In this document: positions 1,561 to 16,183 of the stretch, in pieces
Layout of the letters: each line of letters begins with the position of its first letter
Numbering within the stretch: the stretch's first letter is position 1
Source: Candidatus Dormiibacterota bacterium
GTDB taxonomy: Bacteria > Chloroflexota > Dormibacteria > Aeolococcales > Aeolococcaceae
Assembly (NCBI GenBank): GCA_963743835.1
Contig: CAVUQX010000005.1
Location: 347,959-411,958 of the forward strand
Direction of reading: 5' to 3'
DNA length: 64,000 nt
Made by a program: the position numbers and the translations under genes
Notes under the pieces: model-generated
What the model was told of the DNA's origin: nothing
Seen by the model: only the letters and a program-made list of their open reading frames with translations
Database searches by the model: none

Positions 1561-3120
1561 TCAGGCGACGGCCTTGACGATCTCCTCGCGCAGTCCGGGG
1601 AAGGTGGCGAGATACTCGCGTCGTTCGGCCTTGAGCCGCTCGACCAGGGCGCGATATTCGTCCAAACGGCCCTGGCGCTCGTACAACTTGCGGGGCTGAA
1701 GGATCTCCGCGTCGTCGAGCCCTGGAAGCGAGCTTGCGACCTCGTATCCGAAGTCGGGATCCGGCTCCCACTCGATCGTTCCCTCCGAGATCGCCTTGAC
1801 GATGGCGCTCGAGTACGGGATCGACACCTTCTTGCCGCGCTCGTCGTCGTCGGTGCCGCCGACACGACCGGTGTTGAGCAGATAGACCTGGAAGGTGCTG
1901 CTGTCCATGAGCTCGAGGAACCGGTTTCCCTGCTGCTCGTGACGCAGCGGGAAGAAGGGGTTGGTGCCGGGAACGCGCAGGAACTTGCCGGCCTCCTCCT
2001 TGCCACCCGCGGAGGTGCCGCGCGTCTCGCCGAGCATGAAGTACAGCGCCGCCTGCTCGCGATTGAGGCGCGCCACGCCCGGGATGAGATTGTCATTGCG
2101 ATTGAGGATGAGGAAGTGGTCGACCGACGCCACCTCGCGGGCATCCTTGTGCCATCCCAGCGCATCCATGCGGAAGACGGCGCGGCCGTTGGGCGTGTAC
2201 CCGGTGTCGAAGAAGTCGACGACACCGTCGTCGTTCTGCGAGACGTTCTCGAGGTACGCCTCCGGCTTGACGACGGCGCCGTAGATGCTCGGCTCGAACT
2301 GCGGATCCAGCGCGAACGTCTTCGCAAAGCACCCGTTCTCGGTCGCCACGATCCGTCCGCCCGGGTACAGGGCGACGAAGTCGTCCTGCACGGGCTTGCT
2401 GTCGTTCTGGCGAGTGAATGTCGTGGTTGTCTTGCCGGTGCCGGACAGGCCGATGATCAGGAGCGCCTGATCGCCGCGCGCGGTCGGAACAACCTTGCAG
2501 CCTGCATGCAGTGAAAGCCCACCCTGGTCGTAGGTGAGCTTGTTCCACATCCGCAGCCCGCCCTTCTTCGACTCACCGAAGTAGTCGCTGTTCAGAACGC
2601 GCGTGACCCCGGCCTCGAGGTCGACGGCGATCACGCGATCGTTGGGGTAGCCGGGCGCGTCAAGGTTCGGCGTGTAGATGACCGTGAGCACGGGCGCGAA
2701 CGTGGGTCCCGGCTGCTCCGCCTCGAAGTACAGCCAGTGCTGCATACCGGCGATGTTGGCGTTGGCCGCTTCGATGAACAGCCGCGCAGCGACGCGGTAC
2801 TCGGGATCATTGCCGATGAATCCGTCGATGACGAGCATGTCGTGCTCGCGGATGTACGCATCCTGCCGCGCCGCAATCTTGGCGCCGTCCGCCCTGCTCA
2901 TCGTCTGGTCGGAGTGCTCCTCGGGCCGGTCGGTGACCACGTAGGTGCTGGCCTTGCTTCGCGAGACCACCTTGGTTTGAACGTTGTAGTTGTCGAACTC
3001 GGTGTGCCGGGCGTTGGGCATCCGCGACGTCAACTCGCGCAGCTCCGCGGGGGAGGGGTTCCAGCGGATGGTGCGGGCGCCGGGCAGGGCGCTCGCTTTG
3101 GTGTTGATGACGGCGGACAT
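1561..3120 (-). CDS. pckA: phosphoenolpyruvate carboxykinase (ATP)
   Basis: Full-length match to ATP-PEPCK, including the GLSGTGKTT kinase-1a motif; start taken at MSAVINTK. Confidence 0.9.
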   Translation of the reverse strand: MSAVINTKASALPGARTIRWNPSPAELRELTSRMPNARHTEFDNYNVQTKVVSRSKASTYVVTDRPEEHSDQTMSRADGAKIAARQDAYIREHDMLVIDGFIGNDPEYRVAARLFIEAANANIAGMQHWLYFEAEQPGPTFAPVLTVIYTPNLDAPGYPNDRVIAVDLEAGVTRVLNSDYFGESKKGGLRMWNKLTYDQGGLSLHAGCKVVPTARGDQALLIIGLSGTGKTTTTFTRQNDSKPVQDDFVALYPGGRIVATENGCFAKTFALDPQFEPSIYGAVVKPEAYLENVSQNDDGVVDFFDTGYTPNGRAVFRMDALGWHKDAREVASVDHFLILNRNDNLIPGVARLNREQAALYFMLGETRGTSAGGKEEAGKFLRVPGTNPFFPLRHEQQGNRFLELMDSSTFQVYLLNTGRVGGTDDDERGKKVSIPYSSAIVKAISEGTIEWEPDPDFGYEVASSLPGLDDAEILQPRKLYERQGRLDEYRALVERLKAERREYLATFPGLREEIVKAVA

Positions 3121-3295
3121 GACTCCTCCAATATCCCTGGTCACGATCCCCCCGCTCGACCTCGATCGTCGTTCCAGGCAGGCTTTCCGGACAGCGCGAG
3201 CATAGCAAAGGGTTCCTCGAGGCGTGCCGAGGTAACGGCTTCCGCCGTGTATGGTTGTAGGCTGTCGCTGATGACTTCAAACAGTCCCCAAGCCG

Positions 3296-4231
3296 ATTGC
3301 TGAGGCAACGTCGCTTCGCGAGAAGTCCTGGGTCTTCTTCAACGGTGAGGTCGTTCATTACGCGGATGCCAAGGTCGGCCTGCTCACCCACGGTCTCAAC
3401 TATGGAACCGGCGTTTTCGAGGGCATCCGCGCCTACTGGAACGAGGAGCGTGAGCAGCTCTTTGCGCTGAGCGTCCCGGAGCACTTCGAGCGCATGCACC
3501 AGAACACGCGCGCTCTGCAGATGACCATCCCATGGAGCGTCGAGGAGCTGGTCGCGATCACCGTCGATCTCCTGCGCCGCAACGAGTACCGCGAGGACGC
3601 CTACGTCCGGCCCCTCTCCTTCAAGTCGGCGGAGATCATCGGGGTGAAGTTGCACGACGTCGCGGACAGCTTTGCCATCGTGACCGCACCGATGGGCCTG
3701 TACGTCGGCAATGGCGGCATCCGCTGCATGGTGTCGTCCTGGCGGCGGATCGACGACGCGATGGCCCCCGTGCGCACCAAGTGCACGGGCCTGTACGTGA
3801 ACTCCGCACTCGCCAAAAGTGAGGCCCTGCAAAGCGGGTTCGATGAGGCGATCATGCTGTCCGGAGACGGCCACGTCTGCGAGGGCAGCGCGGAGAACAT
3901 CTTCATCGTCCGCAGGGGCGAGATCATCACGCCGCCGCCGTCGGACAACATCCTGGAGGGCATCACCCGTGCAAAGGTGATGCATCTCGCGCAGGAGGAG
4001 CTCGGGCTCGAGGTCCGCGAGCGGTCGATCGATCGCTCCGAGCTCTACGTCGCCGACGAGGTCTTCCTGGTCGGCACCGGGGCCCAGGTCGCACCCGTGA
4101 TCGAGATCGACCGCAGGCGTATCGGTGACGGCGAGCCCGGCCCGCTCACCAACCGCGTCCAGGATGCGTACCTGAAGGTCGTCACCGGTCGCGACCCGAA
4201 ATACGCCGCCTGGCTGACGCCGATTTACTGA
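3296..4231 (+). CDS. ilvE: branched-chain amino acid aminotransferase (class IV); N-terminal start unclear
   Basis: Collinear with E. coli IlvE (WFNGE..AKV..HGLNYGTGVFEGIRAY ... ENIFIVRRGEIITPP ... GITR). No canonical in-frame start upstream of EKSWVFFNGE. An ATG at 3271 (MTSNSPQADC*) lies in the adjacent frame, suggesting a 1-nt indel, or else a rare ATT/CTG start. Confidence 0.8.
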   Translation: MAEATSLREKSWVFFNGEVVHYADAKVGLLTHGLNYGTGVFEGIRAYWNEEREQLFALSVPEHFERMHQNTRALQMTIPWSVEELVAITVDLLRRNEYREDAYVRPLSFKSAEIIGVKLHDVADSFAIVTAPMGLYVGNGGIRCMVSSWRRIDDAMAPVRTKCTGLYVNSALAKSEALQSGFDEAIMLSGDGHVCEGSAENIFIVRRGEIITPPPSDNILEGITRAKVMHLAQEELGLEVRERSIDRSELYVADEVFLVGTGAQVAPVIEIDRRRIGDGEPGPLTNRVQDAYLKVVTGRDPKYAAWLTPIY

Positions 4232-4266
4232 GCCCCCTGTCTTAGGAACTCAGGCACCGTGGGGGC

Positions 4267-4710
4267 TCAGGCCCGGGCGATCGCGGCCGCGCAGGCGGAG
4301 CAGGTGCCGTAGAAGTCGAGGGCGTCGTGGTCCAGGGCGAACCCGTACCCACCCCTCACCGCGTCGATCAGCTGGTTGACCGCCGTGTCGTCGATCTCCG
4401 TGGTCGACCCGCAGAGGCGGCAGACCAGGTGGTGGTGATGGTTCTCCGCGCACGACGTGTAGACGTGAACGTGGCCCTCCGCCTCGAATCGCTGGGCGAG
4501 CCCGTTCTCGACGAGGAAGTCGAGCGTCCGAAACACGGTTGCGCGGCCGAGGAGCGGGTTCTCAGCACGCAGCGAGTTGTAGAGCTCCTGTGCGCTGACC
4601 GTTCTGCGTGCGCGAGCCAGGGCGCTCGCCACGATCATCCGCTGCAGGGTCAGCCGGTGTCCCTGAGCGGCGAGACGGTCCTTGACGGTGGGCGGTGCTG
4701 CTGCCGGCAC
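4267..4710 (-). CDS. Fur-family metalloregulator (Fur/Zur-like)
   Basis: Fur-like layout with the HHHHLVC..C and C-terminal CxxC motifs (CAENHHHHLVCRLCG..GTCSAC). Confidence 0.8.
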   Translation of the reverse strand: MPAAAPPTVKDRLAAQGHRLTLQRMIVASALARARRTVSAQELYNSLRAENPLLGRATVFRTLDFLVENGLAQRFEAEGHVHVYTSCAENHHHHLVCRLCGSTTEIDDTAVNQLIDAVRGGYGFALDHDALDFYGTCSACAAAIARA

Positions 4711-4714
4711 CGGT

Positions 4715-5794
4715 CTAGGCCGCCCGCTTCAGCCAGCGCTCGGGATGCCGGAGCTCGTCGAGGGTGGGCATCATCTCCGCGGACTCCCAGACTCGATTCA
4801 GCGCGCTGAGCCCGGCGCGATCAACGACGCCGACCGCGAAGTGCTCGCCGACCTCGTACTGGCGCATCTTCATCTCCAGGCCGGTGATGGTGAGCACCAG
4901 CCGCTCGATCGGCCTTCGCTGATGGCGGCGCTGCTGCATGGCCGCCTCGAGCCGGTCGGAGCCGCGAATCGCCTCGCGGCCGGCGCGATGCATGACGAAG
5001 TTGCTGTACCCCTCGAGAACGCTCATCACGGCCTGCACGTGGCGGATCGTCTGCACCTGATTTCGCACCGTGTCGGGCAGCCGGCGAACCATCTGGCTCG
5101 AGGGAAGGAGTGTCTGGCCGTCAGCCGAGAGCGCGTCGAGCATCAATCCGCGCATCACGCTCTCGAGATGCTCGCCGAGCCACGGATGGACCTCGAACTG
5201 CCAGGCATGGGTCAGCTCGTGGAGGATCAGCCAGGGCCGCAGGTCGGTACCGCTGAGATGCAGGTCGCGCTCGATCCCGGCGATGTTGGGCTCGACGAGG
5301 TAGAGGGCGCTCGCCTGACGGGTGTCTCCCGGGACCTCCTCCAGCGCGAGAACCGGGTCGTACTGGCCGAGGACCCGGCGTGCCATCAAGCCGAACAGCT
5401 CGCCGACGTAGCGGTCGAGCACGCGCCGGCTCATGCCGGTCGCCAGCGATTCGGGGACGCTCGCCCGGATGCGCTCGACGGGGGCGAGCAGCCGCTGCAC
5501 CATGCCGAGGTTGGCGTCGATGAAGCCCTTCCGATCGAGGGCGACGAATCGCGGATACGCGGTCAGCGGTACCTGGCAGACCTCGACCAGCAGGGGCGCG
5601 ACCTGCGCCGCCATCTCGGTATAGGCCGCCTCGAGCGCCTCCGCGTTGATACCGGCAGCGCTCCGGAGCTCGCCGCTGCGCGACACGGCGATGCGGCGCA
5701 CGTCATCCCAGTCGACCAGGCGGCGCGGCGTCTGCAGCTGGGGGCGGAGCAGGGCTCGCGCCGACAGCACCGCGCCCGCGCCGACGGCTCCCAC
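4715..5794 (-). CDS. zinc-dependent metalloprotease (DUF2342/F420-associated family)
   Basis: HEXXH motif HELTHAWQ; length and layout typical of the actinobacterial 'zinc-dependent metalloprotease' family. Confidence 0.6.
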   Translation of the reverse strand: MGAVGAGAVLSARALLRPQLQTPRRLVDWDDVRRIAVSRSGELRSAAGINAEALEAAYTEMAAQVAPLLVEVCQVPLTAYPRFVALDRKGFIDANLGMVQRLLAPVERIRASVPESLATGMSRRVLDRYVGELFGLMARRVLGQYDPVLALEEVPGDTRQASALYLVEPNIAGIERDLHLSGTDLRPWLILHELTHAWQFEVHPWLGEHLESVMRGLMLDALSADGQTLLPSSQMVRRLPDTVRNQVQTIRHVQAVMSVLEGYSNFVMHRAGREAIRGSDRLEAAMQQRRHQRRPIERLVLTITGLEMKMRQYEVGEHFAVGVVDRAGLSALNRVWESAEMMPTLDELRHPERWLKRAA

Positions 5795-5878
5795 GGCGAG
5801 CGTGCGGCGGATCTTGTCGCTTCGACTGGCAGGAACTCATGGATCGATCATACGGGGGGACCGCCCGCCGATCGGAAT

Positions 5879-6775: not shown

Positions 6776-7470
6776 TCAGGCGACGCGAGCGGCGATCTCC
6801 TTGACGAGGTTCGCGAGCTCGTCGGTGAGCGGTCCCGGCAGGCGGCGCTGGAGTATCTCGAGCACGCTCGTGTAGTACCAGAGCTGGGCGTGGGGATCAG
6901 TCACGGTGAATCGCTGCCACACGGCGTCGCCGTCGGTGCGGAGGTCGGTCACGATGGACCGCGCGTTGTGGACCTTGTCGCAGGCGGAGACGAGCAGGAC
7001 ATCGCTGTCGGCCTCGACGGCGAGTCGCCGCAGATACGTTTCCTTCCGCTCCCGCCATTCCGGCTTCGGCTTCCCGGGTATCGCGACGGCATCGCTGCAG
7101 GCCATGACGATCCGCGCGACCCGGTCCCCGAACTGCTCGTCGATCACCTGGTGGGTCGCCTCGCCGTCCTCCGAATCCTCCACCGCGTCGTGGAGCAGTG
7201 CGGCGATGGCCAGGTCCTCATCGGCGCCGTTCTCCAGGGCCAGCGCGCAGACCGTCATGACGTGAGCCATGTACGGGACGCCGGTTTTCTTGCGCATCTG
7301 CGTCCCGTGGACCGCCCAGGCCAGTGCGAACGCCGCGGCGAACCGACCGGTCAGCGGTGGCGCGGTCTGGGTCCGCTCGGGCACCAGCACATTGTGGGCA
7401 ATGCTCGCCTGCGAACGAAGCACGGCGGGCATGGGAGCCAGAATGGCGCGGTGCGCTTCTCTCTCGGCCA
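6776..7470 (-). CDS. HD-domain phosphohydrolase (RelA/SpoT-hydrolase-like)
   Basis: H..HD motif (AALLHDAVEDS), HGTQMRK; start chosen at MAEREAH because the longer ORF upstream is R/D-rich low-complexity. Confidence 0.65.
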
Positions 7471-7531
7471 TCGACTGCCCGGCGGATTCTGGGGAGGCGT
7501 CTCCACCTACACGCGCCGGCCCCAACATGCG

Positions 7532-7984
7532 GTGCGTCAAGCTGTCCGCGCGACGGGCGCTATCGGCTGCGTGGGCTTCATCGTCCTGCTCGCCGTCCTC
7601 GCGCTCAGCATCACCTACTGGTACATCAGTGTCCCGGTGCTGGGGCTGACGGCCGTCGCGGTCGGCATCACCGTGCATCGCCAGCACGTCAACCGCGCGC
7701 CGGGATCGGTGGTTGCTCCTTTCCCGGCAATGGGTCCGGTCGCGACCACGAGGCCGGTCATCGCCGCACCCCCAGCGCCGGCGCCCGCGCAGTCGCCACC
7801 CCGCGACCCGCGTATCGCGAGCACCCCGCCTTTGACCATGCCCGCCGACACGTTCAAGGTCGGCTCGCTGGTCCACCTCGAGAAGAACGGGAGGCGCGCC
7901 ACGTACTTCGTCGATCACGGACGGACGCCGGACGAGATCGTGCTCAAGCGCGTTTCCGGCACGCCGCCGGCCCCTGATGCCTGA
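7532..7984 (+). CDS. small membrane protein (2 predicted TM helices plus a C-terminal ~45-aa beta-rich domain); first gene of the putative defence module
   Basis: GTG start 61 nt from the divergent HD gene; hydrophobic stretches IGCVGFIVLLAVLALSITYWYI and VLGLTAVAVGITV; C-terminal FKVGSLVHLEKNGRRATYFVDHGRTPDEIVLKRV. Its stop overlaps the ATG of the downstream ATPase by 8 nt. Confidence 0.5.
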   Translation: MRQAVRATGAIGCVGFIVLLAVLALSITYWYISVPVLGLTAVAVGITVHRQHVNRAPGSVVAPFPAMGPVATTRPVIAAPPAPAPAQSPPRDPRIASTPPLTMPADTFKVGSLVHLEKNGRRATYFVDHGRTPDEIVLKRVSGTPPAPDA

Positions 7985-10406
7985 CGCCGCTCTGCTCGGC
8001 CTGGTGGTCGATCGGATCGAGACCCATGCCCCGGCCGACGGTGCGGCGGACCTGATCCTGGCGGCATTTCAGGGGCCGGGTGCTGTCGATGCCGCACTTC
8101 GCGGCGAGGCCTCTGGGGCGCTGACGCCGGTCGCGCAGAGCGTCGCAGCGCCTGCGGCGGTGTACCTCGCCGCGATCGAGGTGGAAGGCTTCCGTGGCAT
8201 CGGCCCGCCAACCACCCTGCACATCGATCCCGGACCCGGCCTCACCCTCGTGGTCGGACGGAACGGCTCGGGGAAGTCGTCGTTCTCGGAAGCGCTCGAG
8301 ATGGTCCTGCTCGGCAGCAATCAGCGTTGGGAGCAGCGCGTCAAGGTCTGGCGTGACGGATGGCAGAACCTCCATCACCGCCATTCGCGGGTGGCGGCGC
8401 AGTTCGCCGTCGACGGACGCCGGCAGCCGCTCCATGTCGGCCGTGTCTGGAAGGATGGCGATGGTGTCGACGGCTCGACATTGATCGTCGATGGCAAGCC
8501 GGCATCAGCGGCCTCCCTCGGATGGGCGCCGCAACTGGCGGGGTATCCGCCGCTGCTCTCGCACAACGAGCTTGAGCACGCGCTCGATCGCGAGCAGTCG
8601 AAGTTATACGACGCACTCGCCGGCATCCTCGGGCTCGGTGATCTCGCCGCTGCGCAGCAGGTGCTGCAGCGGGCTCGGCTGAGCCGGGAGCACGATGCCA
8701 AGGAAGCTCGCGACGCGCTCCCCGCGCTGCGGGGACTCCTCGACCGAACCTCCGACGAACGTGCGGCGGTGGTTCGCGTCGCCCTGTCATCGAAGACGTG
8801 GGACCTCGACGTTGTCGCGAGCACGGTCGGCGGTGAAGCGCAGAGCGGCGAGCGCAGCGTGTTGCGCAAGCTTCGCGACCTCGCGGGTCTGCCGGTGCTC
8901 GACCGTGAGCGGCTCAACGCCGTGACCACCGAGCTGCGTGAGGCTCATGCTGCGACCGACCGACTGCGCGGTACCGACGCGGGAAGGGCGCACGAGGTGG
9001 CATCGCTGCTCCAGCAGGCGCTCGACGTGCACGCACACGCCGAGGGTGAACGCTGCCCGGTGTGTGGCACTGAGGGTGTGTTGACGTACCAGTGGCGCGT
9101 CCAGGCGCGCGACGAGGTGCTGCGGCTTCGAGCGGATGCGGAGGCGGTGCGCAAAGCGCGTGACATGCTGGGTGACGCGATACGCCAGGCTCGGCAGCTG
9201 GTCACCGCACCGCTCAAAACGCTCCGCGACAGTGCTGGCGCGGGCGTCGACGTTGCGCCGGTGATCGCCCTCTGGGAGCGATGGGCCGACGTTGCTGCCG
9301 ATGATGACGCAATCGCACTGGCCGGCCATCTCGAGACACAAGGCGCGCCGCTCATCGCAGCAGTGGCGGATCTGCGCCGGGCAGCATCGGCGGAGCTCGA
9401 GCGATTGGAGCGAGCCTGGCGACCGGCGGCGGAAGCGATCGCCCTCTGGCTGCCCCTGGGACGGAGGACGCTGGAGGCCGACCGCGAGGCCGGCCGCCTC
9501 CGGGAGGCGGAACGCTGGCTCAAGGATGCGCACGACGAGCTGCGTGATGAGCGGTTCCGTCCGATCGCGGGAGCTGTGCAGGAGAACTGGACCGCACTCC
9601 GTCAGGACAGCAACGTGTCGCTCGGCGATCTGCGCCTGCTCGGCGCGTCGAATCAGCGGCGGCTTGCGCTCGATGTCAAGGTCGACGGCGAGGACGGCTC
9701 GGCGCTTGGCGTCATGAGCCAGGGGGAGCTGAACTGCCTCGCGCTGTCGCTCTTCCTGCCGCGTGCCTCGATGCCGGAGTTGCCCTTTCGTTTTGTCGTG
9801 ATTGACGACCCGGTGCAGGCAATGGATCCTGCCAAGGTTGCGGGGCTCGCCACGGTGCTCGCGCGCGCTGCGAGAGACCGCCAGGTCATCGTGCTCACGC
9901 ACGACACGCGTCTTGCGGACGCCATGAGCGCGCTGGACATCAACGCCACGGTGATCGAGGTGGTGCGGCGCGAGCAGTCGATCGTGGAGCTGCGACGCAT
10001 TCAGGACCCGGTGCAGCGGTATATCGAAGATGCCTTTGCGGTCGCGATGAGCAGGGACGTGCCGGAGGAGGCGCTGCGCGTGATCCCAGGCTTCTGCAGG
10101 CTCGCGCTCGAAGCCGCCGCGTCACTCGCTGCGACGAGGCGACTGCTCCACCATGGCAGGACGTATGCGGACGTCCAGGATGTGCTTGCGCAGCCGACCA
10201 CGCTCAACATGTGGCTCGCGCTGGCGTTGCTGAACGATCCCGAGCGCAGCGGTGACGTCGCAGGGTTCCTGCAGAAGCAGTACCCCTGGGCGGTCGAGGC
10301 CGTCAGGGAATGCAACCGCGGAACGCACAGCGGCAAGCTGTTCGGCGACGCGAAGGAGTTCATTCGCAGCATCGAGCAGCTGACGAAGAGGATCCTCGAC
10401 CGTTGA
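7977..10406 (+). CDS. RloC/PrrC-like ABC ATPase with coiled-coil zinc hook and C-terminal HEPN-like domain (candidate anticodon nuclease / abortive-infection protein)
   Basis: Walker A GRNGSGKSS at ~aa 95; long helical insert with CPVCG (CxxC) at ~aa 360; ABC signature/Walker B/D-loop/H-loop SQGELNCLALSLF...FVVIDDPVQAMD...VLTHD at ~aa 590-640; ~170-aa helical C-terminal tail with Rx6H (VRECNRGTH). Confidence 0.6.
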   Translation: MPDAALLGLVVDRIETHAPADGAADLILAAFQGPGAVDAALRGEASGALTPVAQSVAAPAAVYLAAIEVEGFRGIGPPTTLHIDPGPGLTLVVGRNGSGKSSFSEALEMVLLGSNQRWEQRVKVWRDGWQNLHHRHSRVAAQFAVDGRRQPLHVGRVWKDGDGVDGSTLIVDGKPASAASLGWAPQLAGYPPLLSHNELEHALDREQSKLYDALAGILGLGDLAAAQQVLQRARLSREHDAKEARDALPALRGLLDRTSDERAAVVRVALSSKTWDLDVVASTVGGEAQSGERSVLRKLRDLAGLPVLDRERLNAVTTELREAHAATDRLRGTDAGRAHEVASLLQQALDVHAHAEGERCPVCGTEGVLTYQWRVQARDEVLRLRADAEAVRKARDMLGDAIRQARQLVTAPLKTLRDSAGAGVDVAPVIALWERWADVAADDDAIALAGHLETQGAPLIAAVADLRRAASAELERLERAWRPAAEAIALWLPLGRRTLEADREAGRLREAERWLKDAHDELRDERFRPIAGAVQENWTALRQDSNVSLGDLRLLGASNQRRLALDVKVDGEDGSALGVMSQGELNCLALSLFLPRASMPELPFRFVVIDDPVQAMDPAKVAGLATVLARAARDRQVIVLTHDTRLADAMSALDINATVIEVVRREQSIVELRRIQDPVQRYIEDAFAVAMSRDVPEEALRVIPGFCRLALEAAASLAATRRLLHHGRTYADVQDVLAQPTTLNMWLALALLNDPERSGDVAGFLQKQYPWAVEAVRECNRGTHSGKLFGDAKEFIRSIEQLTKRILDR

Positions 10407-10413
10407 GGTCGGC

Positions 10414-10803
10414 ATGACCACGAGGGTTGATGCGCACGCGCTGGTTTCGGCCGCACGCGACCTCATTCGCGACGACGACGCGGCGACGGCAGGCCTCTGG
10501 CCGCGAGCAGCCGCGTTGCTTGCCCGGCAGGGGCTGGAGCTCGCGATGGAGCGGCTCTGGGAGGTGACGGCCCCTGGCCTGGAGCGAACCTCAACGCGAT
10601 GTCAGCTGCTCTGTGTCGGCGATATGCTCAACGATCGCGAGCTCGGCGGCCGCGCGACGCTGACCTGGCGATCGCTCTCCAACGCGTGCCACCACCGCGT
10701 CTATGAGTTGCCACCGACCGCGAGCGAGCTCAACCTGGCGCTCGAGACCGTGTGGGACCTTGCCGAGTCGGTTGAGCGGCTGCGAGGGAAGATCCAGGGC
10801 TGA
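10414..10803 (+). CDS. standalone HEPN-like protein, paralogous to the C-terminal domain of the upstream ATPase
   Basis: GAGG RBS 6 nt upstream and an 8-nt gap after the ATPase stop; Rx6H motif (WRSLSNACHH); shared LND motif and similar spacing to the ATPase tail (LLCVGDMLNDRELGGRA vs LALALLNDPERSGDVA). Confidence 0.5.
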   Translation: MTTRVDAHALVSAARDLIRDDDAATAGLWPRAAALLARQGLELAMERLWEVTAPGLERTSTRCQLLCVGDMLNDRELGGRATLTWRSLSNACHHRVYELPPTASELNLALETVWDLAESVERLRGKIQG

Positions 10804-10814
10804 GCGCGTGGTTC

Positions 10815-10982
10815 TCAGGTCTTCGGAGCGTCGTTGCGCTGCTCGCCTGAACGCTCGAGGAGTTGTCGCAGGGCAGGAAGCACCACCCGGTCCTTCTCCC
10901 GATTGGCTGCCTCCTTTGCCTGCTCGTCGCGCAAGCGCAGGTCGAATCGCTCGCCATTCTGACCGCGGATCCGGTGTTTCAT
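10815..10982 (-). CDS. possible small ribbon-helix-helix-like protein (convergent with the HEPN gene)
   Basis: MKHRIRGQNGERFDLRLRDEQAKEAANREKDRVVLPALRQLLE resembles a CopG/RHH beta-strand plus helix; short, no further support. Confidence 0.25.
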   Translation of the reverse strand: MKHRIRGQNGERFDLRLRDEQAKEAANREKDRVVLPALRQLLERSGEQRNDAPKT

Positions 10983-11176
10983 CGCTACGACGTCGAGGTC
11001 GTCCCGGCCGGCTGACGTGCCGCCCTGCGAGCTGCGACTGGCACGTGTCGCAAACGCATGCCTCGTTGACAACGCTGCGGCAGCAGTCTCAGCACCCTCA
11101 CAGGGCGCACTGATGAACCTCAAATCACCCGCTGTCACTCTCTAACTTAGCCACCTAAGTAACGAGGAACCCGACC

Positions 11177-12083: not shown

Positions 12084-13298
12084 TCAGGGTGGCGGCTCGA
12101 CCACGGCAACGCCATCAGCGATATGGATGCGCCAGCCCTGCTCGTGCACTCGGCGGTGGTGGGTCCGGCACAACGAGACCAGATTCCCCAGCTCGGTGGG
12201 ACCGTCCGGCCAGTGGATGATGTGGTGCCCATCCGTCCACGCCGGCGGTCGATCGCACCCGGGAAACCGACAGCCCTGATCGCGCAGGTTGAGCGCGGTG
12301 CGGAGGTGGGCCGGGATGGTGCGCGTCTCCCGTCCGACCGCGAGCGGCAGGACCGGTGGGCGGCTGCCGGTCCACGCCGAACCACCCGCAGCCGGCGGCG
12401 CAACGGCCACCACCGTGAGCGCCGCATCACAGGCGATGCGCCGCGCGGTCTCGGGATGGATCGGTCCCACCCCGCGCAGCTCGGCCGGCCAGCCATCGGC
12501 GTCACCCCGGAGCGTGGCCGCGCTCACCGTGAGGGTGAGATGGGGGCGCTGGCCGTGGACATCGCGGTGGTCCCCGCAGCGCAGCTGGGTGGCGGCCAGC
12601 TCGACGAGCGCGTCGGCACGGCGCTGCGAGCCGGTTCGGGTCTCGTCATGGGTCATTCCCTGACTGAGCGCGTCGATGGCGGTCTTCACCAGCGCGCCCC
12701 CTTCGGCGTCGAGCTCCCCGCGAAGGACGAAGACCCCGCCATAGGTCTGCTCGCACTCGAACCAGCGCCGCTCATGGGCGCGGTTGTCGTCGGCGAGCAC
12801 CCCATCGGGATCGATCCGGAGCCGCGCCACCTGGGTGACGGTGCGCATGTCGCCGGGGTCGAGCGTCTCCGCCGCGCCCACCAGGATGTGCTCCAGCAGC
12901 GCCACCTGCGCCACGCCGACATCATTGGCGAGCTGGGCGATCATGGTCACGTTGCTCAGGGAGGCGCGCCCGGCACGGGCGCTGTCGAGCGTGGCCGGGA
13001 GCTCGCCGAGGGTGCGCGCCAGCCGGACGCGGGACGCGCCCGCCTTCCAGGTCACGGCGCAGTGATCGCGCACCCAGGAGGTGGTGCTGCCCGCCCCATC
13101 GGCCAGCGCGCCGTGGGCGCGATCGAAGCGGTCCAGGCGACGGAGGAACTCGGCCTCGAGGCGATCGGCAGCCCGCCGGATGGCGACCAGGTCGTCGCCC
13201 AGCGCCTGTGTGGAGAAGCCGTCGATGGACTCGCCGACGAGTGCATCGATTGCCTCCGTCAGCCGCTGTCGGGCATCCGGTATGGCGAACGCTTCCAT
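12084..13298 (-). CDS. DUF222 / HNH endonuclease-signature protein (mycobacterial 13E12-repeat family)
   Basis: C-terminal HNH motif GCRFPGCDRP...DGHHIIHWPDGPTELGNLVSLCRTHHRRVHE with an N-terminal DUF222-like helical region; start at MEAFAIPD. Confidence 0.8.
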   Translation of the reverse strand: MEAFAIPDARQRLTEAIDALVGESIDGFSTQALGDDLVAIRRAADRLEAEFLRRLDRFDRAHGALADGAGSTTSWVRDHCAVTWKAGASRVRLARTLGELPATLDSARAGRASLSNVTMIAQLANDVGVAQVALLEHILVGAAETLDPGDMRTVTQVARLRIDPDGVLADDNRAHERRWFECEQTYGGVFVLRGELDAEGGALVKTAIDALSQGMTHDETRTGSQRRADALVELAATQLRCGDHRDVHGQRPHLTLTVSAATLRGDADGWPAELRGVGPIHPETARRIACDAALTVVAVAPPAAGGSAWTGSRPPVLPLAVGRETRTIPAHLRTALNLRDQGCRFPGCDRPPAWTDGHHIIHWPDGPTELGNLVSLCRTHHRRVHEQGWRIHIADGVAVVEPPP

Positions 13299-13505
13299 AC
13301 AGAATATTATACCAAACACCTGTTCGCCACCGCACGGACAATGCGGTGCACTTGACTGGTTACAGCCATAGCTGGCAGTAACCGTTCGAGATCTCCGCGA
13401 CGACCGAGGTCCAACGTCCGGATCCGTTGGCGGGTGCCAACTCGACGAAACCCGGCAACGCCAGGGCCCCTCGACGCATGACGCAGTCAACCCCAGTCTG
13501 AGGGT

Positions 13506-14321
13506 CTATCTGTCGGGTCGATCCACGATCGGTACGAAGATCGCCTCGCGATGGTAGTCAAAGTTCATGAGGTCCAAATGATGCTGGCGCGCCATCAACA
13601 ACTGCTGCCCTTCCGTCGCTCGGTCGCCCGTAACGGACAGGCTTTCGGGCATGATCGTGATCGCCCCGAAATCGAACAGCACATGGTCATTCGGGCAAAG
13701 ACACAGGACGTTGTTCATTGCGTCCTTCCCGTTGTGAGGGCGTCCGAGTGGCCGAATGTGGGCGGCCTCAGCATACGGGGCTATCGGGGTGGGCAAGGAG
13801 ATCCGGCAGATTTGGCACGTGTAGTCATACATGCGCTTGACCTCCCGAGTGACGGCAGTGTCCCGAACGATCCGCTGAATCGTTTGGGCGACGCGCTCGG
13901 GGCGTCCCGGCTCGTCGCGTAGCACCAAGACCGCCGACGCGGGGACCTTGCGCAGTTCGTAGCGCCATCGAATGAAACCGTCGCTCGTATGGCGATCGCG
14001 GAAGTAGCTGTCCACCACGTAAACACCGTCATATCGGAAGCTCCGACCAACCTTACGAATGACCCGGACGGGCACGCCGAAATTACGGCTGCGAATCAGG
14101 CCCGCGTTTCCGAGGATCGGTTTCTGGTCGGCAACCGCTCTGGACGTTCCAGGGTCGAGGCCTCCCTGGCCGGTATAGATGACTACGTCCCCTTGATCGT
14201 CATCCGGATAGACACCGGACAAGACGACCGACGCCGCCGGCTGTCCCGCGGCGAAATCTATGCCAGCTTGGAGAGGCCGATGGATGCCGGCGTCTCGGAG
14301 CCCTCGGCGGCTCGGGAACAT
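13506..14321 (-). CDS. SRA(YDG)-HNH methylation-dependent (type IV) restriction endonuclease
   Basis: SRA-domain motifs GVYPDDDQGDVVIYTGQGG and FRYDGVYVV; C-terminal HNH HIRPLGRPHNGKDAMNNVLCLCPNDH; GC ~53-55% against ~70-75% flanking. Confidence 0.75.
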   Translation of the reverse strand: MFPSRRGLRDAGIHRPLQAGIDFAAGQPAASVVLSGVYPDDDQGDVVIYTGQGGLDPGTSRAVADQKPILGNAGLIRSRNFGVPVRVIRKVGRSFRYDGVYVVDSYFRDRHTSDGFIRWRYELRKVPASAVLVLRDEPGRPERVAQTIQRIVRDTAVTREVKRMYDYTCQICRISLPTPIAPYAEAAHIRPLGRPHNGKDAMNNVLCLCPNDHVLFDFGAITIMPESLSVTGDRATEGQQLLMARQHHLDLMNFDYHREAIFVPIVDRPDR

Positions 14322-14451
14322 TGAGCCGACGGGCACCTCAGGCACTTCTCCGTACCTGATAACGGATGGCGTCACGGTGACCTGATGGTACGTGTCCCGC
14401 CGGCCTCCAATCAGAACTAGACATGGGAGGCACTCGGGCCCGCCCAGGCTC

Positions 14452-14501
14452 TTAGCACTCGCGGCCCCCACCCGCTAGCAGTCAGACCCCCCGAGTGCTA
14501 A
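14452..14501 (+). promoter_or_regulatory. CIRCE-like HrcA operator(s) upstream of groEL, atypical arrangement
   Basis: Perfect half-sites TTAGCACTC (14452-14460) and GAGTGCTAA (14493-14501) are separated by 32 nt rather than 9. The internal degenerate halves (aCCcGCTAg, cTAGCAgTC) could make two overlapping N9 CIRCEs. Confidence 0.55.
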
Positions 14502-14546: not shown

Positions 14547-16158
14547 ATGGCCAAGCAATTGCTGTTCGACGTCGAGGCCCGCGCCCATCTCAAACGAGGG
14601 GTTGATCGGGTAGCTGACGCCGTGAAGATCACCATCGGCCCCAAGGGCCGGAACGTCGTGCTGGACAAGAAGTTCGGCTCGCCGACCATCACCAACGACG
14701 GAGTCACGATCGCCAAGGAGATCGAGCTCGAGGAGCCCTTCGAGAACATGGGCGCCCAGCTGGTCAAGGAAGTGGCGAGCAAGACCAACGACATCGCTGG
14801 TGACGGGACCACCACCGCCACCGTCCTCGCCCAGGCGCTCATCGCGGCCGGGTTGCAGAACGTCGCTGCCGGCGCCAACCCGATCCAGCTCAAGAAGGGC
14901 ATCGAGCTCGGCGTTGAGGCGATCGTCAAGGCGATCAAGGAGCAGTCGATCCCGATCTCCGAGCGCGAGAAGATCGCCCAGGTCGCGTCGATCTCCGCTG
15001 CTGACCCCACCATCGGCGAGACCGTCGCCGACGCGATGGAGAAGGTCGGCAAGGACGGCGTCATCACCGTCGAGGAGTCGAAGGGCCTCGAGACCGAGCT
15101 CGAGCTCGTCGAGGGCATGCAGTTCGACAAGGGCTACATCTCCGCGTACATGGTCACCAATGCCCAGCGCATGGAGGCCGTGCTCGAGGATCCCTACATC
15201 CTCATCACCGACAAGAAGATCTCGGCGATCGCGGACCTGCTCCCGATCCTCGAGAAGGTCGTCCAGAGTGGCAAGCCGCTGCTGGTGATCGCCGAGGACG
15301 TCGAGGGAGAGGCGCTGGCCACCCTCATCGTCAACAAGCTGCGCGGCACCTTCAACGCCGTCGCGGTCAAGGCGCCGGGGTTCGGTGATCGTCGCAAGGC
15401 GATGCTCCAGGACATCGCGATCCTGACCGGCGGCCAGGTGATCAGCGAGGAGGTCGGCCTCAAGCTCGACTCCGCGCAACTCAGCTCGCTGGGCCGCGCC
15501 CGCAGCGTGACCATCACCAAGGACGACACCACGATCGTCGAGGGCAACGGCAGCAAGGACGCGATCAAGGGCCGGATCGAGCAGATCAAGGCCGAGATCG
15601 AGAAGTCCACCAGCGACTGGGACAAGGAGAAGCTCCAGGAGCGCCTCGCCAAGCTCAGCGGTGGCGTTGCGGTGATCAAGGTCGGCGCGGCGACCGAGAC
15701 CGAGCTCAAGGAGAAGAAGCACCGCATGGAGGACGCCGTGTCCGCCACGCGCGCCGCAGTCGAGGAGGGCATCGTGCCCGGTGGTGGAGTGGTGCTCGTC
15801 AACGCGATCCCCGCGCTCGACAAGGTGAAGGTCGAGGGCGACGTGCTCACCGGCGTGAACATCCTCCGCCGTGCGCTCGAGGAGCCCCTTCGTCAGATCG
15901 CGCAGAACGCCGGGATGGAAGGCTCCGTGGTCGTTGACAAGGTCAAGTCCCTGCCCAAGGGTCAGGGCTTTCGACGCCGCCAAGGGCGAATACGTGGACA
16001 TGGTCAAGGCCGGGATCATCGACCCGACCAAGGTGACCCGATCGGCGGTTCAGAACGCGGCATCGATCGCCGCGCTGCTGCTCACCACCGAGGCGCTGAT
16101 CACCGACATCCCCGAGAAGAAGGGAGCACCGGCCGGTCCGCCGATGCCGGAGTACTGA
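14547..16158 (+). CDS. groEL: chaperonin GroEL (60 kDa), with an apparent +1 frameshift (extra T near 15969-15971)
   Basis: Canonical GroEL from [12 protein letters not shown] to ...[11 protein letters not shown]; the C-terminus ([45 protein letters not shown]...) continues in frame +1 (ORF 15871..16158). Confidence 0.9.
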
Positions 16159-16183
16159 TCGGCAACTGATCCGATTCCTTGGA

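Follow-up and report, generated by a model that had tools for sequence, protein, structure and literature searches.

Why should an ATPase that already carries a HEPN-type domain at its C terminus be encoded together with a second, free protein of the same kind? The question is raised by a stretch of 64,000 nucleotides from a Candidatus Dormiibacterota bacterium (contig CAVUQX010000005.1; the whole stretch is called the window in the following), in which the gene of a Rad50/SMC-like ATP-binding cassette (ABC) ATPase is directly followed by the gene of a protein of only 129 amino acids. The original prediction, read from the DNA alone, had called the small protein a standalone paralogue of the C-terminal domain of the ATPase, here named the tail. 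We find that the two genes occur together almost without exception, that both domains are predicted to adopt the HEPN fold, and that profile comparison points to a distant kinship between them. Together they may form a two-subunit ribonuclease (RNase).

The gene pair and its distribution

7977..10406, forward strand: ATPase gene, 809 amino acids, from the list of open reading frames (ORFs); Rad50/SMC-like ABC protein with a predicted C-terminal HEPN tail and an RloC-like architecture
10405..10408, forward strand: GAGG, a Shine-Dalgarno-like sequence, which overlaps the ATPase stop codon and lies 5 nt 5' of the ATG
10414..10803, forward strand: small gene, standalone protein of 129 amino acids with a predicted HEPN fold, from a family without a Pfam, NCBIfam or PADLOC model

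The TGA stop codon of the ATPase occupies positions 10404-10406, which leaves 7 nt before the start of the small gene. The layout that had been proposed, with a small ORF behind a GAGG ribosome-binding site downstream of the ATPase stop, is correct, because the ORFs, the TGA and the GAGG sit as described. Translation of the small ORF had been named as a point on which the idea could fall. Measured against ten orthologues, the ratio of nonsynonymous to synonymous substitution rates (dN/dS) is 0.04-0.18, which speaks clearly for translation; judged from its sequence, the ORF is a real gene. The protein has 262 close homologues, all of about 129 amino acids and mostly from metagenome-assembled genomes (MAGs) of Candidatus Dormibacterota. 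A full HMMER profile search extends the family to 938 representatives at 50% identity; among the 150 family matches listed, nearly all are standalone proteins of 110-150 amino acids.

For the co-occurrence of the two genes, we scanned genomes, one per species, with a query of 20 small-protein sequences. The scan returned 80 loci, which belong to Dormibacterota, Chloroflexota, Vicinamibacterales and other Acidobacteriota, Acidimicrobiia and Actinomycetota. The gene directly upstream of the small gene carries the ATPase head and the HEPN tail in all 80. An independent reverse survey, in which the tail motif was sought in metagenome contigs, gave 75 loci with room downstream, and 73 of these have the small gene directly behind the tail. 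The expectation that the two genes always stand together is thereby confirmed as a near-absolute association in both directions. The junctions are narrow: they fall within -17 to +17 nt in 73 of 78 loci, with modes at +7 (19 loci) and -4 (15 loci). The pairing is ancient and nearly obligate, in soil bacteria of at least four phyla.

Some loci depart from this picture. The sole two of the 75 tail-bearing loci without the small gene are L153 (3926..4551), in which an intact ATPase is followed by a gene that appears ORF6N-like by eye from its N-terminal sequence and has no profile hit, and L161 (1080..2994), in which the tail is cut mid-domain by an insertion, with ORFs that include helix-turn-helix-type regulators. 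In another locus (L067, 4740..7360) two copies of the small gene flank a segment of about 2.2 kb, with repeated flanking sequence; either an insertion has duplicated the gene here or the assembly is at fault. In L083 the tail seemed to be encoded by a third gene of its own, for a protein of 137 amino acids; this reading was rejected, as a frameshift precedes the tail and the missing strands are readable in another frame. This locus (2932..5818) is flanked by an operon of the cyclic-oligonucleotide-based anti-phage signalling system (CBASS; CD-NTase, E1/E2, JAB and patatin), by BrxR and by a PLD-like gene. Locus L082 is riddled with frameshifts, and a protein search with the tail profile found mostly ATPase fragments on short contigs.

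Probable kinship of the tail and the small protein

10005..10403, forward strand: predicted HEPN-fold tail, ATPase residues ~677-809
10077..10112, forward strand: tail motif R701-x6-R708-x3-E712 (RVIPGFCRLALE), picked out by its conservation and its hhalign match to R31/R38/E42
10311..10328, forward strand: tail motif C779-N-R-G-T-H784, at the HEPN Rx4H site, with Cys in place of Arg
10504..10539, forward strand: small-protein motif R31-x6-R38-x3-E42 (RAAALLARQGLE)
10678..10704, forward strand: small-protein motif S89-N-A-C-H93-H-R-V-Y97, family consensus L-S-[R/N]-A-C-H-x3-Y

Neither the small protein of the window nor any of 93 diverse members of its family (31-61% identity to the window protein) gave a family match in Pfam, NCBIfam or PADLOC. 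With the HEPN-type Pfam models, 0 of the 93 match at E<=0.01, and the window proteins show nothing at E<=1. A sequence-profile search of the PDB with the small family returned chance matches only, with no related sequence detectable. Likewise, the ATPase tail alone had no match among the PADLOC families, and 22 tails yielded no HEPN or defence family. The pair is uncaptured by the current family and defence libraries (Pfam, NCBIfam, PADLOC).

Structure prediction gave a confident AlphaFold2 model of the small protein (predicted local distance difference test score, pLDDT, 90.8; predicted template modelling score, pTM, 0.85) with helices at residues 7-19, 28-52, 61-72, 75-94 and 103-128. The model of the ATPase tail (residues 660-809) is good from residue 678 on (pLDDT 86.6). 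We see in these models the compact up-down helical bundle of ~100-130 residues with HEPN topology. The best structural matches of the small protein include 2hsb, 1wol, 5yep, 7ae2 and 8xdj; a Foldseek search of the PDB with the tail gave no significant match and a weak list of mostly HEPN toxins. The PDB neighbours of both domains are mostly MNT-associated HEPNs, and the top neighbours are the same for both. Because of the models and these structural comparisons, we regard the small protein as a firmly assigned HEPN and the tail as a moderately well supported one. Moreover, both models place the conserved His at the C-terminal end of the last helix but one: H93 ends helix 75-94 of the small protein and H784 ends helix 111-125 of the tail model, each before the last loop.

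Are the two domains also kin? A BLASTP comparison of the two proteins showed no similarity, and with HMMER neither domain's profile matched the other's sequence in 160 loci. With hhalign, a signal was obtained that rose steadily with the diversity of the alignments, from P=0.079 with close homologues to P=0.031 with 93 diverse small proteins and P=0.0029 when 34 diverse tails were compared with the 93 small proteins. In the last case the score is 23.1 and the probability 10.7%, over 110 colinear columns. The controls were 60 tail profiles with shuffled columns, which reached scores of 11.5 +/- 2.0 (maximum 16.8), and the reversed profile, which reached 10.7. The real score thus lies about 5.8 standard deviations above the shuffles; the match is weak and colinear over both full domains. 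Such an hhalign comparison had been proposed as the check, with a low probability as the refuting outcome. The result is equivocal: taken literally, 10.7% speaks against the proposal, whereas the P value and the score above all shuffles speak for it. The colinearity that had been seen by eye was indeed recovered, over the 110 columns.

In the alignment R31 of the small protein falls on R701 of the tail, R38 on R708 and E42 on E712, in an identical R-x6-R-x-A-L-E pattern. Taken from the 93 diverse small proteins and 76 tails, conservation amounts to 90%, 98% and 100% for the three residues of the small protein and to 100%, 99% and 100% for those of the tail. Further downstream the small protein keeps H93 (100%), Y97 (91%), S89 (89%) and C92 (78%), and the tail keeps H784 (97%), C779 (97%) and N780 (93%). 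An Arg-x3-Glu...His set is consequently kept at 97-100% in both partners. In both domains the invariant Glu follows in R-x3-E order, which is the reverse of the typical HEPN Ex3[KR] and PrrC/RloC-like. Both depart from the canonical HEPN Rx4-6H pattern, of which the His is kept and the Arg is not.

This bears on the residues on which the original prediction was built. A C-terminal R-x6-H had been read in both proteins. In the small protein it is due to chance, with position 86 mostly Ala or Ser and Arg in 3 of the 93 sequences; position 90, which would give R-x2-H, is Arg in 43%. In the tail, position 777 is Lys or Arg in 79% of the sequences, and the Rx4 position is the nearly invariant Cys, followed by Asn. 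From the second motif that had been proposed, LND[RP]ExxG[DR], the Asp is kept (D74 in 72% of the small proteins, D754 in 96% of the tails) and the rest is not. What stands is the idea of a paralogue of the tail, since both domains have predicted HEPN folds and are probably distant paralogues; its R-x6-H basis was wrong. From the profile alignment and the shared motifs we conclude that the homology between the tail and the small protein is real but distant, and that the two are likely to be specifically paralogous.

Several cysteines lie close to these residues. In the tail, C707 (10095..10097) adjoins R708 and C779 (10311..10313) stands five residues before H784, both conserved at 97-100%. 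In the small protein, C67 is found in 77% of the family, and C92 adjoins the invariant H93. These residues (C707, C779, C67, C92) could form a metal or redox site near the putative active site. A Cys-x3-Cys...Cys-His metal site in the small protein was discarded because the family as a whole does not keep it: outside Dormibacterota, Ala, Thr or Ser takes the place of C63, and only C67 and C92 are common.

The ATPase beside known systems

8256..8282, forward strand: Walker A / P-loop GRNGSGKSS, residues 94-102, invariant
9054..9065, forward strand: CPVC, residues 360-363, candidate zinc hook
9714..9809, forward strand: signature MSQGE (580-584) to Walker B FVVIDD (606-611), invariant
9900-9902, forward strand: switch His H642, invariant

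The ATPase has 1439 homologues; the invariance of its motifs was judged in an alignment of 25 of them. Its Pfam matches, SMC_N (5.4e-17), AAA_21 and AAA_23, all lie in the head and none reaches past residue ~655. With AAA_13, which we take to be the Pfam family that holds RloC and PrrC, its score of 29.2 bits stays below the cut-off of 36, and the match covers only the head and does not reach the tail. NCBIfam adds only weak matches to SMC, Rad50 and RecF heads, and PADLOC gives head-only matches to mad3, LmuB, HEC-01A, AriA and GajA. The solved sequences nearest to a profile of the 25 homologues are again SMC and Rad50 heads. Walker A falls within the AAA_23 and AAA_29 matches, and the SMC_N, AAA_21 and AAA_13 matches span residues 568-652. 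The CPVC motif, in which C360, P361, V362 and C363 are all invariant, marks the midpoint of an insert of ~275 residues that separates the two lobes of the ATPase head. Two weak matches overlap it, Rad50_zn_hook of Pfam (residues 344-365, E=0.3) and Rad50_Sulf of NCBIfam (residues 308-366, E=0.0015).

RloC and PrrC, the textbook examples of anticodon nucleases gated by an ATPase, are both regarded as single-protein systems. RloC is defined by its ABC motifs, a coiled-coil insert with a CX2C zinc hook and a C-proximal Arg-X3-Glu-X36-52-His; the protein is Zn-responsive, and its anticodon nuclease activity is lost upon mutation of any residue of this triad (PMC2610378). The RloC of Geobacillus kaustophilus has 804 amino acids and the triad R692/E696/H737 (PMC2610378). 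The ATPase of the window comes close to this design in its size of 809 amino acids, in its ABC motifs, with Walker A, signature, Walker B and switch His all invariant, in the central CX2C, a candidate zinc hook, of a long insert, and in a predicted C-terminal HEPN-type domain with Arg-x3-Glu...His at R708/E712/H784. It departs from RloC in that the tail reads R708-x3-E712-x71-H784, with 71 residues instead of the published 36-52; in the model of the tail, an additional short helix goes with the longer spacing. With its spacing of 50, R38-x3-E42-x50-H93 of the small protein falls inside the published range. RloC is described as one protein alone; in the present loci a free second HEPN that bears the same Arg, Glu and His is almost always co-encoded. 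There is no RloC or PrrC model among the 25 PADLOC matches listed for the ATPase. From its sequence, the ATPase is RloC-like in design and not a member of the RloC family, because AAA_13 stays below threshold and in the head only and no PADLOC match to RloC or PrrC is listed.

PrrC shares the ABC ATPase N-domain and a C-terminal HEPN nuclease with an Arg320-Glu324-His356-type triad, and it is a latent, regulated RNase. It lacks both a coiled coil and a zinc hook, and what keeps it silent is a linked type Ic restriction-modification system rather than a HEPN paralogue; in the window there are no hsd genes next to the pair. The ABC-HEPN proteins of the ERFG_01251 type, compared by description only, resemble our ATPase as fusions of an ABC domain to a HEPN that stands nearer to the MNT-associated type than to the PrrC and RloC domains, but they are listed as keeping Rx4-6H and no free HEPN partner is reported for them (PMC3710099). 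With the HepT/MntA type the small protein shares its standalone form of ~130 amino acids and a Tyr after the His (H-x3-Y here, Rx4HxY there). In contrast to that type, it lacks the motif Arg, has no gene for an MNT nucleotidyltransferase beside it, and is partnered by a large ABC ATPase that bears its own HEPN. Finally, PARIS (AriA/AriB), Lamassu (LmuB/LmuA), Septu and Gabija also combine an SMC/ABC-type ATPase with a small partner of nuclease fold in two genes. Their effectors are of TOPRIM, Cap4 or HNH fold and not HEPN, and it is unusual that the ATPase, as here, carries a copy of the effector fold too. As had been claimed, the pairing is absent from the descriptions of RloC and PrrC (PMC2610378, PMC3710099); it is also absent from PADLOC. 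A co-encoded free HEPN partner goes unmentioned in the papers on RloC, PrrC and HEPN proteins that were compared, a comparison outside which the ABC ATPase survey of Krishnan et al. 2020 lies. The pair is best filed as a two-gene form of the RloC/PrrC kind of ATPase-gated HEPN nuclease.

How the pair may act, and where it lies

As a rule, HEPN RNases work as homodimers or, like Cas13, with both domains in a single chain. With a rough probability of 45%, we propose that a heterodimer of the tail and the small protein is the RNase site of an ATPase-gated, RloC-like two-subunit module. The two genes would then be one translationally coupled module, with a Rad50/RloC-like ABC head, a long CPVC-hook insert and a C-terminal HEPN contributed by the first gene and a free HEPN, a distant paralogue of the tail, by the second. 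The free subunit would presumably dock onto the tail by the interface with which HEPN domains usually dimerise. The RNase site would be built from a single tail and a single small protein, with an Arg-x3-Glu...His from each, an arrangement that may be likened to the two unlike HEPN domains within one Cas13 chain. The ATPase and its zinc hook would gate this site on a DNA or nucleotide signal, as in RloC, and the likely outcome would be that tRNA or another RNA is cut and translation is shut off under phage attack or DNA damage. In this scheme we infer that the two proteins physically heterodimerise and that they act as a nuclease, as well as what triggers them and which RNA they cut. Active HEPN RNases are canonical dimers, in which catalytic residues of two domains meet; RnlA, for example, needs the canonical HEPN dimer together with R255, E258, R318 and H323, and its antitoxin RnlB binds that dimer (PMC8266594).

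The proposal draws on the low dN/dS and size of the small family, the hhalign signal and its growth with alignment diversity, the motifs common to both domains, the near-obligate and tightly joined pairing, the parallel with RloC and the precedent of RnlA. As context, one relative neighbours CBASS, BrxR and a PLD gene, and an SRA-HNH nuclease gene lies 3 kb from the pair in the window. A number of observations weigh against the proposed RNase module. The hhalign probability is only 10.7%. Catalysis is not assured, because neither domain conserves the canonical Rx4-6H Arg; HEPN exceptions that keep the His, lose the Arg and conserve other basic residues have been deemed possibly active (PMC3710099). 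PrrC and RloC act without a second HEPN subunit, so that a partner is not mechanistically required. Additionally, a role in classical mobile defence is not established, because many loci lie among housekeeping genes, many of the Dormibacterota MAG loci share the gene order of the window as far as the groEL close by, and a scan of viral contigs found no relative.

Instead of completing the site, the small HEPN could block the dimer interface of the tail as an inhibitor or antitoxin, and would leave or be degraded on activation so that the tails homodimerise and cut RNA. The need of HEPN RNases for canonical dimerisation and the example of RnlB, which inhibits by binding that dimer (PMC8266594), would fit such a role. 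The tight operon with a small downstream gene also resembles toxin-antitoxin layouts, and the small family is slightly acidic, with a median isoelectric point (pI) of 6.0 vs 7.1 for the tail; net charge and pI do not discriminate among the mechanism models. We nevertheless hold an inhibitor to be decidedly unlikely. R31, R38, E42, H93 and Y97 are kept at 90-100% across 93 sequences, which is not expected of a passive plug, and only 2 of 75 loci have the ATPase but not the small gene, one of them with a truncated tail. The low dN/dS of the small gene points the same way. Antitoxins are often fast-evolving. A passive decoy in particular is disfavoured, because the pattern of R38 (98%), E42 (100%) and H93 (100%) fits the mutagenised triad of RloC; as read from the alignment, this argues against a decoy and is compatible with an inhibitor. 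The roles could equally be reversed in the manner of PARIS and Lamassu, with the ATPase tail as a docking pseudo-partner that holds the small HEPN nuclease until its release gives an active homodimer. We give this caged effector the same small chance as the inhibitor, as R701, R708, E712 and H784, needless for a docking domain, are kept at 97-100% in the tail and there is no evidence of release or of homodimers.

It is very improbable that the HEPN pair is non-catalytic and that one or both domains bind a ligand (nucleotide, RNA or DNA) to give a Rad50-like machine its sensor or its specificity. The invariant His and Glu, together with the Arg, fit the triad pattern that was proven essential in RloC and PrrC (PMC2610378, PMC3710099). 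RloC and PrrC themselves deviate from classical HEPNs, and Arg-less families that keep the His are deemed potentially active (PMC3710099). A different doubt concerns the kinship itself, as two independently recruited HEPN families could share a resemblance that is generic to the fold. The silence of BLASTP and HMMER and the low hhalign probability would agree with this, yet we regard it as unlikely in view of the identical R-x6-R-x-A-L-E spacing in both domains, which reverses the usual Ex3[KR] order (PMC3710099). Both domains are also without the motif Arg, both end the penultimate helix with His, and they share similar sizes and the same top PDB neighbours.

Should the proposed heterodimeric module be true, a near-obligate second HEPN that keeps Arg-x3-Glu...His would add a new arrangement, regulatory or catalytic, to those of HEPN RNases. 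H93 vs H784 would then offer a simple genetic handle on how SMC-like ATPases activate an attached nuclease, and annotation of the small family with its 938 clusters would add a detectable two-gene system to the catalogues of defence and toxin genes. One may speculate further, with considerable doubt, that these are widespread, undescribed two-subunit RloC-like RNases, in which a zinc-hook ATPase holds one HEPN half-site, an obligate free paralogue the other, and SMC-like gating controls both. In Dormibacterota they may serve a vertically inherited translation shut-off linked to DNA damage or stress rather than mobile phage defence.

No third gene conserved across phyla was found in the neighbourhood of the pair. 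Around it, the window contains the following ORFs:

6776..7918, reverse strand: ORF of 380 amino acids with an HD_4 match at residues 196-334 only
10815..11138, reverse strand: small convergent ORF just past the pair, poorly conserved
12084..13490, reverse strand: DUF222 + HNH protein, adjoins the SRA-HNH gene
13506..14471, reverse strand: SAD/SRA + HNH_2 protein, ~3 kb from the pair
14547..16169 and 15871..16158, forward strand: groEL, with an apparent frameshift near its 3' end

The SRA-HNH and DUF222-HNH genes lie 1.3-3.7 kb downstream of the pair, and the SAD/SRA + HNH_2 protein looks from its domains like a methyl-directed type IV restriction nuclease. Of the convergent ORF, only the last ~35 codons are kept, in a few close relatives, and its other parts match sequence ~1.3 kb away in the loci of those relatives, which suggests a local rearrangement or a gene remnant. 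The long groEL ORF ends in an out-of-frame tail rich in Arg and Gly, and an ORF of 95 amino acids in another frame encodes the canonical C-terminus; the frameshift appears to reflect either a sequencing or assembly error or a pseudogene. The N-terminal ~190 codons of the HD_4 ORF are rich in Arg, Gly and Asp and are probably non-coding, with the true start likely further downstream in the gene.
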